From Candidatus Hermodarchaeota archaeon (lineage in GTDB: Archaea > Asgardarchaeota > Lokiarchaeia > Sigyniarchaeales > SOKP01), in the NCBI GenBank assembly GCA_048885535.1, contig JBHLLO010000013.1:1-60459 (forward strand): a DNA stretch of 60,459 bases. The letters are read 5' to 3'. The notes below the pieces were generated by a model, which was not told the origin of the DNA, ran no database searches, and worked only from the letters and a program-made list of their open reading frames with translations. Positions 55,410 through 60,459 of this stretch are shown piece after piece; the first letter of the stretch is position 1; each line of letters starts with the position of its first letter. The translations under genes were made by a program, and so were the position numbers.

Positions 55410-57233
55410 TTAGTTTTTAATTCTTTTTCTAATACTTATTAATGATATTAATCCAACCATTAGAAAAACGCTGCTGATAATTAAAAATGTATCAAATCCG
55501 GGTATTCCTCCAGGGGAGACTGCTGCAGAAACTAATCTATATTCGAAGATAACTATGCTTTCATCATTTAATAATTGAACTGTTTTTAAAATACCGAGAA
55601 TGGCATCATATGTATATTTTAATTGATAGTCTTCAACGGCAGTATTATTTTGAGTGACAACTAGTCCAGATAACTGACTTCCGGGAGCATAGGAACGTCC
55701 TACTAAATAATAATAAGGCGGAAACGGTGTAACCCACATCCAACCTCCCCAGAATCCATCTTCAGGATCACAATATAGACCAAAGCTCGTGGTATAATTT
55801 GGTTCTGATCCATAACTATGTGAAGTCCAATCCCATACATCAGTATATAAATACCATAGGTTTCCGGATAATAAAATGTCAGTAACATGTCTTTTCATTT
55901 TAACACCAACTTCAGTGCAACCTGGTCCAAAAAAGGATTCTATATCAGTTTCCCAAGTACCTCCTAGTACATTTTCTAACTCGACATCATTTAGTTTGGT
56001 TACTCTCCATTCGAATTCACTTCCAGCGGGAAAGCTAAACTCCATGAGAATTACTTCAAAGATAACTGTACCAAGCGAATTTTTAATTTGGAAAAGATCT
56101 GTCACGCCAAGATCTTCATCAAAAGTGTATATAGCTTCATAAGATTCTACATCAGAACTGGATACTGTTATTGTACTACCTGAAGCACTAGTTCCAGCAA
56201 AATATGAAAGTTCCTCTAAGTATGTCACGACAGGTGTAGGAATCATCCAAACAGATGGATTCCAGGTATTTCCAGTTGGATCCATAGGTAGATTATACCA
56301 AACATCATCTCGATCCGGAACACCACCATGCAATAATTCTTTATCCTTCCAATTCCATCCATCTACATATAATCGATACCAATCAGCAGTAGGATGATTA
56401 AGAACATCTTCTATTTCTATTTTTGACTTATTCCCAGCCTCAGATGGGCTATTTAGTGCCCACCAACAGTATGTATTCAAATCTGTATCCCAATTACCTC
56501 CAAATACATCTCCTAATTCCGCGACATTTAATTCAGTTACAATCCAGTTATAAGTTTCCGCGGTCCAAATTTTCAACTCAAAACCCCATAATTCGAAAAT
56601 AATTGTATCTGCATCGTTCTTAATCACAAAATTCTTGATGACACCTGTATTTACATCATAAATCCAATTTACTTCATAATCAGCTATATCTGTTCCAGTG
56701 TAATTAATAATATTATCATAGGCTGTGAATAATGACGCATAGGACAAATTTGCCAAATATAAATCTACGGGTATTGCTACCATCCATACACTAGGATTCC
56801 AGAGTTCTCCCGAGGAGCTCATAGGGAGGTTATATGTATAATCATCTCTTACAGGAGCTCCAAAAGAAGTGGTTTTATCAATCCAACCCCACCCATCATA
56901 AGTAAATTGCCACCAATCACTCAAGCTAGGATGAACTGTAATATTTTCAATTGCAAATTTGGACTTCTGACCAAGAGCAGCCGGTGCTACATATCCATTC
57001 CACCACATATAATCTCCTACATCAGTTACCCAGTCTCCTCCAAACACATTATTTAATTCAGTAGTATCAAATTCTGTACATACGAATTCAAAATAATCTG
57101 TAATTTCAAATCCAAGAGTATAATCACCCACTGCATTACTCTTAGGAGTATGCGATTCTACTCCTTGAAATATTGCACTTATTAGAAAAAGGTTTAAGAT
57201 TACTATGTAAACTAACCATTTTTTTGATTTCAT
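55410..57233 (-). CDS. Surface protein with three ~185-aa tandem repeats and Loki-CTERM anchor
   Basis: Signal peptide; three 'T.....EL..V[FL]GG.W.TD' repeats; GGIPGF-TM-RKRIK. Confidence 0.85.
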   Translation of the reverse strand: MKSKKWLVYIVILNLFLISAIFQGVESHTPKSNAVGDYTLGFEITDYFEFVCTEFDTTELNNVFGGDWVTDVGDYMWWNGYVAPAALGQKSKFAIENITVHPSLSDWWQFTYDGWGWIDKTTSFGAPVRDDYTYNLPMSSSGELWNPSVWMVAIPVDLYLANLSYASLFTAYDNIINYTGTDIADYEVNWIYDVNTGVIKNFVIKNDADTIIFELWGFELKIWTAETYNWIVTELNVAELGDVFGGNWDTDLNTYCWWALNSPSEAGNKSKIEIEDVLNHPTADWYRLYVDGWNWKDKELLHGGVPDRDDVWYNLPMDPTGNTWNPSVWMIPTPVVTYLEELSYFAGTSASGSTITVSSSDVESYEAIYTFDEDLGVTDLFQIKNSLGTVIFEVILMEFSFPAGSEFEWRVTKLNDVELENVLGGTWETDIESFFGPGCTEVGVKMKRHVTDILLSGNLWYLYTDVWDWTSHSYGSEPNYTTSFGLYCDPEDGFWGGWMWVTPFPPYYYLVGRSYAPGSQLSGLVVTQNNTAVEDYQLKYTYDAILGILKTVQLLNDESIVIFEYRLVSAAVSPGGIPGFDTFLIISSVFLMVGLISLISIRKRIKN

Positions 57234-57396: not shown

Positions 57397-57747
57397 TTAG
57401 AGCCAAGAGATAATTCTTGAATTCGAAACTAGAAGATCAACAAGTTCTTCATATTCAATTTTGCTGATTTTATCCACTATATCATTTGGATTGATTCCAC
57501 GGGCTTTAAGATCGGGAAGAAGAATATAGAAAGAAATTGGTAAATCTAGAAGCGTAGATAATTGGGGATTTACTTCAGGCTTTTTAGTAAGACCTATAAC
57601 GCCATCATGCATAAAAACAAATGTGATCTCTGCTCCCAATTTTTTCTGCTGATATATGATATTGATAAGTTTGATAAAAGGTTTATAACTATTTATACTA
57701 TAGCCAAAAAGGTAAATTATATTTTTAAGGTCTTCCAATTCAATCAC
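57397..57747 (-). CDS. dsrH: DsrH/TusB-like subunit, second copy
   Basis: FMHDGV, DLKARGI, YEELVD...IISW. Confidence 0.85.
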   Translation of the reverse strand: MIELEDLKNIIYLFGYSINSYKPFIKLINIIYQQKKLGAEITFVFMHDGVIGLTKKPEVNPQLSTLLDLPISFYILLPDLKARGINPNDIVDKISKIEYEELVDLLVSNSRIISWL

Positions 57748-57753
57748 ATACTC

Positions 57754-58119
57754 TTAATATTTAAAACAAAAATCATTATCTAATAATAATTCAGAGATAG
57801 TCTTATAATCTATAACCTTTAAGTGTTGATAAGGAATTAAGTCATTTCTGTCAAGATCTAATGCTATAAGATCTTCATGTGCTACTAGAATGGGCAATTC
57901 CGATAATTCAATTAACCTAATCATATCATCAAGCGAATCCATGTTCAAGCCAGAAGGATTTACATTTTTATTAAGAAATAAAATTGCATCTCCTAAAAAT
58001 AATATTTGACAAGCCTCCACATCTCCCATACTTATAATTCCAGCAGCTAGTCTAATTGATTCAACAGCCGAATTTTTTCCAAAGGGAGAATCTTCACAAA
58101 TAATTAATATTGAAGTAAT
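57754..58119 (-). CDS. dsrF: DsrF/TusC-like subunit, second copy (probable ATT start)
   Basis: Frame extends 30 codons above the annotated ATG: ITSILIICEDSPFGKNSAVESIRL, aligning with the paralog INSVVIISDQSPVGKNSAIEALRL; GGAGGTGA 6 nt upstream. Confidence 0.8.
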   Translation of the reverse strand: MTSILIICEDSPFGKNSAVESIRLAAGIISMGDVEACQILFLGDAILFLNKNVNPSGLNMDSLDDMIRLIELSELPILVAHEDLIALDLDRNDLIPYQHLKVIDYKTISELLLDNDFCFKY

Positions 58120-58125
58120 ATTTCT

Positions 58126-58503
58126 TCACCTCCCTGGTCCAAAAAATATAACTCGATCAGAATTACCAATTAATTCTGAAAGACCACCTAATCCATCTAA
58201 ACATGCATTCTCGATAAAATCTGATTCTTTTAATCCTGTTATACTTACCCAGGTACTACATGCAGCTACATTAGCATTACTTTTCTCAATGAATTCTTGA
58301 AGCTTTTTCGGTAAATCTCGAATTGAACTAAATAGTTTCCTATTTTTGTGAATGTTATATACCCCACTCCCAATGAAGAAAATACCTAATACCTGATGTC
58401 CTTTTTTAATAATAGCTTCTCCTAGATTAATCACTGTATCCATTGCTTCATATTTATATGGTTCAGCAGCAATGATAAAACAAAACTTTAGCATATTAAA
58501 CAC
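58126..58503 (-). CDS. dsrE: DsrE/TusD-like subunit, second copy
   Basis: AEPYKYEA, GHQVLGIFFIGSGV, VAACSTW, GLGGLS. Confidence 0.85.
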   Translation of the reverse strand: MFNMLKFCFIIAAEPYKYEAMDTVINLGEAIIKKGHQVLGIFFIGSGVYNIHKNRKLFSSIRDLPKKLQEFIEKSNANVAACSTWVSITGLKESDFIENACLDGLGGLSELIGNSDRVIFFGPGR

Positions 58504-58630
58504 CTTGCTTTATAAAACAATTTCCGGCAATTGAATTATTCAAACTATCTTAGGAAAAATTCGAAAGATTTTTATTTCAAATTAATAATGTAACTTTTAA
58601 ATATTTTCAGATAACTATTTATTTAAAGTT

Positions 58631-58681
58631 ATGGCAGCTCTAAGAATTATATCTTGGCAGTGGCCTTGGCATTGGCAATAA
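58631..58681 (+). CDS. Putative Trp-rich leader peptide (trpL-like uORF) MAALRIISWQWPWHWQ
   Basis: ATG GCA GCT CTA AGA ATT ATA TCT TGG CAG TGG CCT TGG CAT TGG CAA TAA; four TGG in seven codons directly upstream of trpB2; TTTTAAATA at 58595-58603. Confidence 0.7.
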   Translation: MAALRIISWQWPWHWQ

Positions 58682-58825
58682 AGCCAATTGCATCAGTTAT
58701 TATTTCGATTTATTTTTTCTCTTTACTATTCTGCTTTTAAATATTAATCTTTCTTTCTAAGTGGGCATTAATTATATTGATTTCCAATTTTTTAATGATA
58801 CACATCTTAAGATGTGAAAAAGTAA

Positions 58826-60247
58826 ATGCAAAAGGTATATAAAATGTCAGACATCTTTAATGGAAGAATTTTATTGCAACCAAATGAGATTCCAGAATAT
58901 TGGGTAAATATTTTACCAGATTTGCCCTCCCCTATGACACCCTTACTAAATCCAATGGATAAGAAACCAATTCCTCAAGAAATGGCATTTGCTATTTTTC
59001 CGCAAGAATGTGTATTGCAAGAGCTTTCTTCTGATCCTTTTATTCCTATCCCTAAGGAATTGAGAGAAATTTTTGCTAGTACATATCGCCCTAGTCCACT
59101 TCATCGTGCTTTTAGATTAGAGAAAGATTTAGGTATTAAAGGAGATAAAATCAAAATTTTTTATAAAAATGAGTCATGTTCTCCTACTGGATCACATAAA
59201 CCTAATACAGCTATAGCCCAAGCATATTATGCAAAAAAGGAAGGATTAGAAGAATTAGTTACAGAAACAGGTGCGGGGCAGTGGGGTTCTGCGCTAGCAT
59301 ATGGGTGTCGTTTGTACAGTCTAAATTGTACGGTATATATGGTAAGAGCAAGCTTTTATCAGAAACCAGGGAGAAAAGTTTTGATGAGATCATTTAATGC
59401 TGAAATATATGCGAGCCCTTCTAATTTAACTGATTCTGGAAAAATCTTTTTGGAAAAAGATTTAGAACATCCAGGGAGTTTAGGAATAGCGATATCTGAA
59501 GCACTAGAGCACAGTATGAGGAGTGATAAAATAAAGTACTCACTTGGAAGTGTTGTAAATTTTGTATTATTACACCAGACTATCATAGGGCAAGAAGCAA
59601 AGATTCAACTCGCTAAAGCTGGTATTGAAAGCCCTGATATTATAATTGGTTGTATGGGAGGTGGTTCAAATTTTGCTGGTTTGATGATTCCATTTGTTAA
59701 AGATAAATTAAATGGGATTAATCAAAACATGGAATTAATCGGTGTGGAACCTCGAGCATGTCCAAGTGTATCTAAAGGAGAGTATAGATGGGATTACGGA
59801 GACTCTGCGATGAAAGGACCTATTGTAAAAATGCACACTTTAGGCCACACCTTTATCCCAAGCCCAATTCATGCAGGAGGATTAAGATACCATGGAATAG
59901 CTCCCATTATTTCAATTTTACATAATAATCGAATTATTGAGACCGTTATGCATCATCAAACGGAAGTAATTAGTGCCGGTCTTCAATTTGCTAAAACTGA
60001 AGGAATTCTACCTGCTCCTGAAAGTGCACATGCTATAAAAGAAACAATTAACCAAGCATTGAAAGCTAAAGAAAATAATGAAAAGAAGGTCATCCTTTTC
60101 AATCTTAGTGGACATGGTTTTTTTGATTTGCTAGCATACGAGGAATTCATGAACGGAAATTTAAAAGAATTTGAATTACCTGACGGCGAGATTCACTCAA
60201 ACTTAACCTCAAAAGAAATGCCAAAAATCGATGAATCACAACTTTAA
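58826..60247 (+). CDS. trpB2: Tryptophan synthase beta chain, TrpB2 type
   Basis: SPTGSHKPN (PLP Lys), TETGAGQWG, GGGSNFAG, IHAGGLRYHG, PAPESAHA, NLSGHG; the start may be ATG 58844. Confidence 0.95.
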   Translation: MQKVYKMSDIFNGRILLQPNEIPEYWVNILPDLPSPMTPLLNPMDKKPIPQEMAFAIFPQECVLQELSSDPFIPIPKELREIFASTYRPSPLHRAFRLEKDLGIKGDKIKIFYKNESCSPTGSHKPNTAIAQAYYAKKEGLEELVTETGAGQWGSALAYGCRLYSLNCTVYMVRASFYQKPGRKVLMRSFNAEIYASPSNLTDSGKIFLEKDLEHPGSLGIAISEALEHSMRSDKIKYSLGSVVNFVLLHQTIIGQEAKIQLAKAGIESPDIIIGCMGGGSNFAGLMIPFVKDKLNGINQNMELIGVEPRACPSVSKGEYRWDYGDSAMKGPIVKMHTLGHTFIPSPIHAGGLRYHGIAPIISILHNNRIIETVMHHQTEVISAGLQFAKTEGILPAPESAHAIKETINQALKAKENNEKKVILFNLSGHGFFDLLAYEEFMNGNLKEFELPDGEIHSNLTSKEMPKIDESQL

Positions 60248-60263
60248 TTTTTTTTTTTTTTTT
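60248..60263 (+). terminator. Oligo-T terminator of trpB2
   Basis: T16 immediately after the TAA. Confidence 0.6.
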
Positions 60264-60300
60264 ATTTTACTAACTTCTATGATTTTTCTAAGTAAAAATT

Positions 60301-60459
60301 CTATACAGAGTAATGCTCTTTTTCGGGGTGAATTTCATGTATAAATCGAAAATCAAAAATATCTTTAACACTGAGTTGCTTACTTATATACCCTAATTTA
60401 TGAAGAATTTGTATAAATCTCATTGTAGATTCTACGTATTCTTCAGAAAGTGCAATACA
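60301..60459 (-). CDS. C-terminal end of a protein entering from outside the window (resembles an ABC substrate-binding protein tail)
   Basis: Manual translation CIALSEEYVESTMRFIQILHKLGYISKQLSVKDIFDFRFIHEIHPEKEHYSV*. Confidence 0.5.
   Translation of the reverse strand, partial: CIALSEEYVESTMRFIQILHKLGYISKQLSVKDIFDFRFIHEIHPEKEHYSV

Follow-up and report, generated by a model that had tools for sequence, protein, structure and literature searches.

The trpB2 leader and its gene

We examined a 60,459-nucleotide (nt) stretch of an Asgard archaeal genome (contig JBHLLO010000013.1, here contig C13 and hereafter the window; the assembly holds 3.09 Mb with 30% G+C at 91.6% completeness), in which a short upstream open reading frame (uORF) rich in tryptophan (Trp) codons precedes trpB2, the gene of a stand-alone TrpB-like enzyme. 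The features of this leader and of its surroundings are collected in Table 1. The uORF, predicted originally from the nucleotide sequence of the window by itself, is present with its four Trp codons exactly where it had been placed: 16 codons encode the peptide MAALRIISWQWPWHWQ, and the Trp codons begin at 58655, 58661, 58667 and 58673 with a strict 6-nt period, so that at the nucleotide level they form a perfect tandem repeat (TGGCAG TGGCCT TGGCAT TGGCAA). Four Trp codons among 16 give the uORF the codon-rich composition by which trpL-type attenuators are recognized. Reading frames of this kind are rare in the window's genome, where only 13 of 30724 ATG-initiated frames of 8 to 30 codons contain at least four Trp codons and only 2 of 5069 intergenic ATG-initiated frames of 6 to 40 codons place four Trp within 8 residues; the second of these two (C71:14930-14971) has no gene behind it. 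Because such frames are so scarce, the uORF is unlikely to have arisen by chance, and the clustering of its Trp codons is far from chance expectation.

Other Trp-rich frames that came up in these searches were set aside. In the same genome, the frame at C1:59978-60061 is an artefact antisense to a small proline-rich gene and the one on C16 lies inside a coding frame, while the strings MYWWWE and LYWWWK near trpA fall within the trpB1 coding sequence and hence are not leaders. The original prediction had suggested looking for analogous His, Leu or Phe leaders; among the 5069 intergenic short frames of this genome, no convincing leader candidate emerged for any other amino acid considered (His, Cys, Met, Tyr and others).

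The gene behind the leader, originally given as trpB2, a tryptophan synthase beta gene, is trpB2 by its NCBIfam match. Its first in-frame ATG, an alternative start, is at 58826. The orthologues align from a later ATG at 58844 (MSDIF...), and an AAGGT stands just upstream of it; because of both, we count the spacer between uORF and trpB2 as 162 nt and not as the 144 nt given originally, a figure that runs to the ATG at 58826. Across the genome, Shine-Dalgarno-like motifs peak 12 to 11 nt before start codons. For TrpA, IGPS (TrpC) and Chorismate_bind (TrpE), the Pfam models gave no match in this 91.6%-complete genome and were positive in all 14 control genomes. Because no trpA, trpC or trpE was found, trpB2 probably encodes an indole-salvage enzyme. 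Judging from the known activity of TrpB2 enzymes it is probably the only Trp-forming enzyme of this genome, with indole salvage as the likely route, and Trp-dependent control of trpB2 would make physiological sense since it is the sole such enzyme on these searches.

The assignment of the window to the Asgard archaea agrees with its relatives. The named records closest to its TrpB2 are labelled Promethearchaeota archaeon, among them Loki_b31 and Loki_b32, and the name Asgard group leads to the kingdom Promethearchaeati, of which that phylum is a member. Two loci carried by metagenome-assembled genomes with bacterial names (L101 and L107; candidate division WOR-3 and Nanopelagicaceae) encode TrpB2 proteins 72-75% identical to that of the window, an identity equal to that of the Promethearchaeota records, and are probably mis-binned archaeal contigs.

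Table 1. Leader, trpB2 and neighbouring features, in coordinates of the window
Feature	Position	Strand	Remarks
Candidate TATA box of the leader transcript, TTTTTATTT	58569-58577	+	Promoter by consensus only
Alternative TATA-like box, TTTTAAATA	58595-58603	+	27 nt to the uORF ATG; leader of few nt if used
Leader uORF	58631-58681	+	ATG 58631, TAA 58679-58681
Match to covariance model R1 (uORF end, hairpin, T-rich tail)	58640-58729	+	76.4 bits, E 1.9e-10
Hairpin P2	58671-58688	+	ATTGGC 58671-58676, loop AATAAA 58677-58682, GCCAAT 58683-58688; covers last Trp codon, Gln codon and stop
T-rich tract, TTTATTTTTTCTCTTT	58709-58724	+	T6 run 58713-58718; candidate archaeal termination signal
Second TATA-like box, TTTTAAATA	58735-58743	+	Possible separate trpB2 promoter, with start site at first base of P3
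Stem-loop P3	58766-58797	+	Outer stem CATTAA 58766-58771 / TTAATG 58792-58797; inner stem ATTG 58776-58779 / CAAT 58785-58788; apical loop ATTTC
Hairpin P4	58801-58816	+	CACATC/GATGTG, loop TTAA; just upstream of the trpB2 ribosome-binding site; in the minimum free energy (MFE) fold
Shine-Dalgarno-like AAGGT of trpB2	58832-58836	+	8 nt before ATG 58844; AAGGA/AAGGT at same place in relatives
trpB2, stand-alone TrpB-like pyridoxal phosphate enzyme	58844-60247	+	Gene presumed to be controlled; Pfam PALP; NCBIfam NF009057, E 1e-189
DsrE-like gene	58126-58503	-	Pfam
Reading frame without Pfam match	57754-58029	-	Between the DsrE-like and DsrH-like genes
DsrH-like gene	57397-57747	-	Pfam

Conservation of the uORF upstream of trpB2

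Upstream regions of trpB2 orthologues were compared at 90 loci across the phylum (89 for the strand and TGG controls), counting as positive any frame of at most 70 codons with at least two Trp in its last 12 codons, no more than 3 residues apart. By this measure a Trp-rich uORF precedes trpB2 at 58 of the 90 loci, and one with at least three Trp at 42, counts that are not independent and overstate independent support because the related genomes are kin. The orientation of the signal is clear: 57 of 89 regions are positive on the sense strand and 3 of 89 on the antisense strand, and with at least three Trp the comparison becomes 42 against none. We regard the antisense strand as the cleaner control, the swap-shuffle alternative being crude and burdened with a high null (about 16 and about 5 loci). 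The same signal appears when no reading frame is called at all, in that 59 of 89 upstream regions hold at least three TGG within 30 nt as against 8 of 89 for CCA. In regions with at least three TGG in 30 nt, the clustered triplets share one frame in 184 of 213 cases, which argues for a translated frame and against a repeat bound by protein.

Within the genus of the window a Trp-rich uORF is found at nearly all of the 22 loci, about 140-170 nt before trpB2, with C-termini such as ...CWQWPWRS, ...WRWQWPWRF and ...WQWQWRS, and other families of the order carry it as well. The N-terminal part varies in sequence and length; ATG, frame and stop are retained. Between the uORF stop and the start of trpB2 the distance is nearly fixed, measuring 156-170 nt in 28 loci. 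Absence of such frames upstream of orthologues had been named at the outset as the outcome that would count against a leader peptide, and the comparison returned instead an in-frame uORF kept across the family and in other families. Among the families, f1 is positive at 33 of 42 loci, four more having a homologous uORF (...CWRGLWRF...) that misses the spacing rule and five having none. Positive loci were also found in f2 (5 of 7), f3 (1 of 1), f4 (3 of 3), f5 (1 of 1), f7 (2 of 2, ...FWAWRWLLWP), f8 (1 of 2), f11 (5 of 11, ...QWHWGPRGPV, one of them doubtful), f12 (1 of 3, doubtful), f20 (2 of 2, ...SWHPWRSWRWQ), f22 (1 of 1), f26 (1 of 2) and f31 (2 of 2); under the same criterion no Trp-rich uORF was found in f6, f13, f16, f19, f23 or f25. 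Two closed genomes of the same order, G038 and G033, likewise have Trp-rich uORFs before trpB2 (L085 and L030).

The same leader before other trp units

A covariance model, R1, built from 32 leaders and covering the final 12 uORF codons, the hairpin and the 48 nt that follow the stop, matches 104 of 135 genomes of the family at E <= 0.01, mostly once per genome of 2-5 Mb. The leader described here gives the sole match below E 1 in the window, and nothing else in the window's genome matches at E <= 0.01. With gene identities downstream of the matches assigned by Pfam, and genes in relatives called by frame length and a few Pfam checks, the 30 best matches all precede a trp gene, 28 of them trpB2 and 2 trpD. 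Of a further 20 matches examined, lower-scoring or second in their genome, 10 stand before trpD operons, 1 before a trpA-trpE-trpG unit and 8 before trpB2, and the remaining one is a remnant without uORF. Operons that begin with trpD continue with trpC, trpF and trpB1, and then with trpA and trpE where the available stretch reaches that far.

One genome, G309, holds three divergent leaders, one each before trpB2, trpA-E-G and trpD-C-F-B. Further leaders precede trpD in G208 and G172 and trpA in G193, and three genomes of a sister genus (G335, G230, G353) have leaders at both trpB2 and trpD. The whole leader module thus travels together before different genes, at a distance of 265-450 nt from trpD in some operons. 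A Trp-cluster reading frame that is repeated, diverged and positioned directly before three kinds of trp unit looks like a cis-acting Trp sensor. The five loci of the family that have trpB2 without a uORF are all in genomes having TrpA; in four of these genomes the leader stands before trpD, and the fifth has a decayed copy with W-to-C changes. A strict rule that a uORF at trpB2 means absence of trpA is broken by G208, which has both.

Several of the operon leaders deserve description in their own right. The trpD leader of G167 (L210) reads ...STWFCICCWHA where its counterpart in the sister genome G172 reads ...STWFVWCWHA; it has exchanged Trp codons for Cys codons while its hairpin is kept, and it may be a decaying or a retuned sensor. 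In other families, the trpD leaders L203 (f20, ...LPWWHWF) and L204 (f14, ...TTWFCWLFWYW) have a conserved mini-frame, MGYRVWI..., followed by a Trp-rich frame about 50 and about 115 nt before trpD, respectively, a design that differs from that of the window's family. A frame of 80-90 residues without Pfam match (for example L182:648-905) lies between leader module and trpD in L181-L183 and L199, which come from one genus and from G320.

RNA structures of the leader

The hairpin that had been proposed over the last Trp codon and stop, here called P2, is present, as are the additional TTGGC copies at 58654-58658 and 58666-58670. In the window, the 42 nt at the last Trp codon fold with -10.0 kcal/mol as compared with a mean of -2.7 kcal/mol for other windows of the same upstream region, which places them at the 4th percentile, and 37 of 56 leaders have a fold energy here that ranks among the lowest tenth of values along their own upstream regions. 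In 50 of 56 leaders the predicted structure starts no later than the first base of the last Trp codon, giving the overlap between stall site and hairpin that is characteristic of trpL-type attenuators. In alignment A3, 89.5% of cells are paired in the register of P2 as against 30-55% in slid registers, three of the five pairs show compensatory changes, and none of 500 shuffles reached the observed covariation score. The arms differ from lineage to lineage and remain complementary (TTGGC/GCCAA, GGCGTT/AACGC, GGCGT/ACGCC, GGTGC/GCAC, GGTCTT/AAGACC, GGGTCC/GGACCC and others).

In most relatives P2 is enclosed by a long-range helix, P1, in which the segment just 5' of the uORF start pairs with the segment behind P2 (ATGGTTTA/TAAACCAT). 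Within the genus 89% of cells are paired in this register, compared with 24-46% in slid registers, with little sequence variation and weak covariation (40 of 500 shuffles); P1-like arms were seen by eye in other lineages (TGATTTAG/CTAAATCA, TTGGTTTA/TAAACCAA and AAATAGTCC/GGACTATTT).

The most conserved non-coding block corresponds to positions 58760-58805 of the window and contains stem-loop P3, whose apical sequence is nearly invariant. We first favoured this block as purely promoter and operator, and downgraded that interpretation since the outer stem covaries as RNA. Alignment A5, which combines 46 leaders taken from trpB2, trpD and trpA units, has 84.8% of its cells paired as against 31-45% in slid registers, and 7 of 10 pairs are changed on both sides (A-U, G-C and G-U at one position, for example). 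Cells changed on both sides number 27, a total that none of 500 shuffles attains (shuffle mean 16.8 ± 2.6). Since P3 covaries across trpB2, trpD and trpA leaders, the sequence downstream of the uORF appears to be selected as RNA. The small hairpin P4 has equivalents in relatives with other arms and loop sizes, as seen by inspection.

The leader as a whole is less distinctive. Its fold has a z-score of only -1.7, and RNAalifold applied to 20 leaders recovered P1, P2 and a palindrome only, with a weak consensus energy of -5.6 kcal/mol. Two candidate switches were tried by hand and rejected: a four-segment arrangement joining the 3' arm of P2 to the 5' strand of P3 works on inspection in L184, L016 and L044 and fails in L185, L003 and L001, and if the conserved CAUUGG that follows the hairpin is paired to the CCAAU in P3, variable middle bases are left uncompensated. 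The T-rich sequence ATTTATTTTTTC at 58708-58719 is complementary over 12 base pairs, one of them G-U, to GAAAAAGTAAAT at 58816-58827, and the two are paired in the MFE fold; similar complementarity is seen in the window's clade but is missing from some relatives, L005 among them, and we rejected this pairing ahead of the Shine-Dalgarno motif as probably trivial A/U complementarity. A search of positions 57500-60459 against Rfam 15 at E up to 10 gave nothing near gathering scores, only small nucleolar and small RNA matches at chance level, those within the leader reaching at best 15-25 bits (E 0.76 to 9).

Promoter boxes and the T-rich tract

Two TATA-like boxes stand upstream of the uORF, and the positions at which such boxes occur genome-wide allow for either. 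TATA-like hexamers peak at -32 to -29 before start codons with a second hump at about -60 to -51, which suggests a genome that mixes leaderless mRNAs with mRNAs led by a Shine-Dalgarno motif. The box TTTTTATTT, at -62 from the uORF ATG, fits the second hump. It aligns with the conserved TTTATAA or TTTTTAT box of 12 related leaders as well as with the invariant TTTATAA block of the genus alignment. The downstream box, TTTTAAATA at 58595-58603, starts at -36, slightly upstream of the leaderless peak, and is conserved only in the four closest leaders of the 12-leader alignment. We therefore consider the upstream box the more likely promoter of the leader. Of the original proposal at this point, the box TTTTAAATA and its 27-nt spacing are borne out; the nearly leaderless transcript drawn from them is doubtful, the conserved box being the one at 58569-58577, and for the same reason the transcript probably has a 5' untranslated region of about 30 nt. 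Bacterial promoter consensus is not applicable to archaea.

Downstream of the uORF, the U-rich tract that had been pointed out is present, and the segment TATTTTTTC of it is conserved in the window's clade. The 100 nt behind the uORF stop are 44% T and 29% A. In this interval 45 of 61 leaders have a run of at least five T as against 37 ± 3.4 in shuffles, with 8 of 61 for the A-run control, and in several relatives the run stands directly behind the hairpin (for example AACGCTTTTTC). The second copy of TTTTAAATA, noted earlier as a caveat, is likewise present and may mark a separate trpB2 promoter.

A model for tryptophan-dependent control

We propose that the uORF is the gene of a Trp-sensing leader peptide, embedded in a leader RNA module of about 250 nt that controls the trp gene behind it in cis, a proposal that comparison of the leaders renders probable on balance. 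What the comparison shows is the conservation of the uORF with its Trp codons and frame, its occurrence before three kinds of trp unit and the covariation of P2 and P3. The controlled gene would be the stand-alone, indole-salvaging trpB2 in the window, and in relatives also trpD-C-F-B-A and trpA-E-G operons. The parts of the proposal differ in strength: that the leader senses Trp and acts in cis is very likely, whereas premature termination as the regulated step is a tentative suggestion that falls somewhat short of probable.

The mechanism we have in mind can be sketched as follows, and in it we infer that the uORF is translated and co-transcribed with trpB2, that ribosomes stall on it and that termination is the step under control. 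A ribosome would translate the leader while the RNA is being synthesized. When charged tRNA-Trp is scarce, it would stall near the uORF end, where three to four UGG codons stand, and its footprint would mask the 5' arm of P2, a hairpin that takes in the final UGG together with the stop; the compact leader fold, in most relatives P2 inside the long-range helix P1, would thereby be blocked. Polymerase would then pass the T-rich tract into P3, P4 and trpB2. With ample Trp, the ribosome would reach the stop and leave, the hairpin would form, and transcription would end at the T-tract. The same outcome could be reached if the naked leader were prey to a termination factor, a variant in which the stalled ribosome possibly masks the factor's entry site; the stalled ribosome itself may act as the antiterminator. 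The geometry is conserved among leaders, with the final Trp codons placed within the 5' arm of P2 and the stop in or beside the loop of this hairpin, and it suits such a sensor; the T-tract behind is the natural place for polymerase to halt, which is why we favour conditional termination. Extended to the lineage, the model pictures an Asgard Trp regulon run by leader peptides, in which each trp unit (trpB2, trpDCFBA, trpAEG) has its own uORF in a composite leader RNA (P1, P2, U-tract, P3, P4) and the ribosome decides whether the archaeal RNA polymerase terminates; on the sequences at hand we judge this broader picture evenly balanced between right and wrong.

A number of observations pull in the other direction. 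The uORF has no Shine-Dalgarno motif, and the kinship of the genomes compared inflates its apparent conservation. A scan for bacterial-type terminators returned 0 sites, the T6 run of the window lies about 25 nt downstream of the hairpin and not adjacent to it, and the enrichment of T-runs across leaders is modest (45 vs 37 ± 3.4). RNAalifold found no alternative helix in 20 leaders that could serve as a mutually exclusive antiterminator, and P1 is absent from the window's own clade. The hairpin would be covered too by a ribosome waiting at the stop codon, and the model therefore requires that release be fast. For termination at oligo-T archaeal polymerases need no hairpin, and a conditional role of the hairpin is thus hard to see. 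Lastly, a promoter of trpB2 that is separate and regulated would account for the box at 58735-58743 and for the palindrome that the genus has between this box and P3. Trp-tRNA-sensing attenuation or uORF control, as originally put forward, is supported by the conserved Trp-rich leader before trp genes, with termination as its less certain part.

The separate promoter is the core of a different reading, in which leader and gene are separate transcription units: the leader would always end at the T-tract, trpB2 would be transcribed from the second promoter under a DNA-binding regulator, and the leader RNA or peptide would act in trans or by transcriptional interference. A TATA-like box about 27 nt before the first base of P3 is found in the window and in trpB2 leaders throughout the genus, with the T-tract just upstream of it in the window, and the genus palindrome, AATTGCA-nn-TGCAATT, occupies the place of a classical archaeal operator; moreover, trans functions are described for a bacterial trp leader RNA and its peptide (PMC7298713). 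However, the box is not kept at that distance in trp-operon leaders, the palindrome is missing in the window's clade, and the box itself, at -109 from the start codon, falls outside both genome-wide TATA peaks. The spacing between uORF and gene is constant, and G309 keeps three divergent leaders, each directly before a different trp unit, as expected of a cis-acting element and not of a trans factor; we regard independence of leader and gene as unlikely. A more drastic departure would make the open frame incidental and the TGGCNN hexamers binding sites for a DNA- or RNA-binding regulator. The perfect 6-nt tandem repeat of the four TGG is compatible with this, and TRAP of Bacillus does bind triplet repeats in RNA. 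Yet TGG spacings vary by lineage (adjacent, 3 nt or 6 nt apart) and nonetheless keep to one frame in the 184 of 213 cases given above; start codon, open frame and a stop soon after the last Trp codon are kept while the intervening sequence changes; and the antisense strand is positive at only 3 of 89 loci. A non-coding function of the repeat is accordingly very improbable.

Control might instead be exerted on translation, with a ribosome stalled on the uORF opening the trpB2 ribosome-binding site, as in mycobacterial poly-cysteine leaders, or with reinitiation downstream. The structured P3 and P4 between the uORF and the Shine-Dalgarno motif would be in keeping with this, as would the pairing of the T-tract (58708-58719) with the A-rich segment (58816-58827) just before that motif in the MFE fold, and the mycobacterial study provides a bacterial precedent (bioRxiv 10.1101/834739). 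In 24 of 33 leaders we masked a ribosome footprint placed either over the Trp codons or, in a second fold, over the stop, an exercise in thermodynamic modelling only. The unpaired probability of Shine-Dalgarno motif and start hardly changed in 23 of the 24 (0.12, 0.09 and 0.10 in L001), the exception being L016, where a ribosome at the Trp codons raised it from 0.19 to 0.49; the inner stem of P3 was likewise unchanged in 23 of 24, with a fall from 0.92 to 0.48 in L156. In 23 of 24 leaders, then, these folds revealed no duplex hiding the ribosome-binding site that a stalled ribosome would open. The uORF ends 162 nt before the start codon, and the modules standing 265-450 nt from trpD indicate that the structures travel with the uORF and not with the ribosome-binding site. 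Translational control thus strikes us as unlikely, and conditional termination in a cis-acting, Trp-sensing leader remains the reading that we prefer.

Relation to known systems

Leader-peptide attenuation is a textbook bacterial mechanism that needs ribosomes close behind RNA polymerase. The element described here shares with trpL-type attenuators (Escherichia coli trp; actinobacterial trp leaders, PMC1262725) a short leader reading frame with Trp codons near its end, placed before Trp biosynthesis genes, a hairpin over the end of the frame followed by a U-rich tract, and the presence of several trp units per genome, each with its own leader. It differs in that the host is an archaeon with a eukaryote-like RNA polymerase, that the Trp codons alternate with others (W-x-W-x-W) instead of standing side by side, that no alternative antiterminator helix was found here and the window's U-run is not adjacent to the hairpin, and that the Asgard leaders have extra conserved structures, namely P3, P4 and, in most relatives, the long-range P1 enclosing the uORF. 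In its outline the element would work like a trpL-type attenuator. We do not file it as a member of that class: the codon-rich frame and the overlap of stall site and hairpin are both there, no antiterminator was found, and a U-run directly behind the hairpin is seen in several relatives and not in the window.

The leaderless poly-cysteine short frames of mycobacteria offer a second comparison. According to the mycobacterial study (bioRxiv 10.1101/834739), they too are uORFs rich in one amino acid that precede several loci of its metabolism, stalled ribosomes block RNA structure on them, and together they form a ribosome-coordinated regulon, or 'ribulon'. They act on translation, whereas in the Asgard leaders accessibility of the Shine-Dalgarno motif was unchanged by masking in 23 of 24 cases. 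The Asgard uORF also lies at least 160 nt from its gene, and domain of life and amino acid are both different.

TnaC, of the Escherichia coli tna operon, is a short leader peptide with a critical Trp that controls an enzyme interconverting indole and tryptophan through factor-dependent termination just after its stop codon; its nascent peptide serves as a sensor of free Trp, and the operon that it induces is catabolic. Some Asgard leaders resemble it in ending with proline before the stop (...RWLLWP in L070 and L071). By contrast, their multiple Trp codons point to sensing of charged tRNA, and their targets are biosynthetic or salvage genes.

Among archaea, TrpY is the DNA-binding repressor of the trp operon in Methanothermobacter. 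A 2007 report (PMC1854888) names it as one of just two archaeal systems known to regulate trp genes, each of which works at the level of trp operon transcription. Trp-dependent control of archaeal trp genes is common to TrpY and to the element proposed here, which differs in being a predicted translated leader with RNA structure. Upstream of trpE-first operons at four loci of other families (L200, L201, L205 and L208; f23, f12, f11), TGTACA-N5-TGTACA repeats lie by a TATA-like box 100-200 nt before the operon, and the same loci have a Shine-Dalgarno-like GGAGG followed by a short frame that starts V/M-R-x-x-[LV]-W. These repeats resemble the TrpY operator boxes of Methanothermobacter, and other Asgard lineages may use a repressor instead of, or besides, a leader peptide. 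The window's leader contains no TGTACA boxes.

The original prediction held that such control is undescribed in Asgard archaea, and we found no amino-acid-sensing leader peptide described for any archaeon in the full-text literature searched, outside of which lie most subscription journals and supplements. Asgard archaea are the closest known prokaryotic relatives of eukaryotes. If the model is correct, this would be the first amino-acid-sensing, ribosome-mediated attenuator in Archaea, direct evidence that the Asgard lineage makes regulatory use of transcription-translation coupling, and a case of ribosome-based metabolite sensing outside Bacteria on eukaryote-like transcription machinery. 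Coupling and conditional termination could then be tested on a natural system of defined sequence, in the very lineage that stands nearest to eukaryotes, and it would mean that indole salvage by stand-alone TrpB2 is regulated, and hence a physiologically important route to Trp where no trpA, trpC or trpE is found. For annotation, the work supplies a rule and a working covariance model with which regulatory uORFs that lack annotation can be located in Asgard genomes. That uORFs regulate in bacteria, archaea and eukaryotes alike is a general statement in a tool paper (PMC10219788), and a Methanosarcina ribosome-profiling study places 10% of its unannotated small frames in 5' untranslated regions (PMC11456600).

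Neighbouring genes and further observations

Upstream of the leader and divergent from it lies a cluster of three minus-strand genes (57397-58503) that looks like a sulfur-relay set of the TusBCD/DsrEFH type. Beyond it, a minus-strand frame of 607 residues (55410-57233) has a hydrophobic segment at its N terminus, a membrane anchor at its C terminus and, between them, three repeats of about 180 residues each that are rich in Trp, Asp and Tyr; it may encode a surface protein.

Downstream of trpB2, many relatives (L189, L192-L194, L197) have a gene for a multi-pass membrane protein of 344-370 residues without Pfam match, followed by a gene resembling the regulatory chain of aspartate carbamoyltransferase. 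This protein could conceivably transport indole or Trp. A gene of the same kind in G225 has a leader remnant (L186) directly before it.

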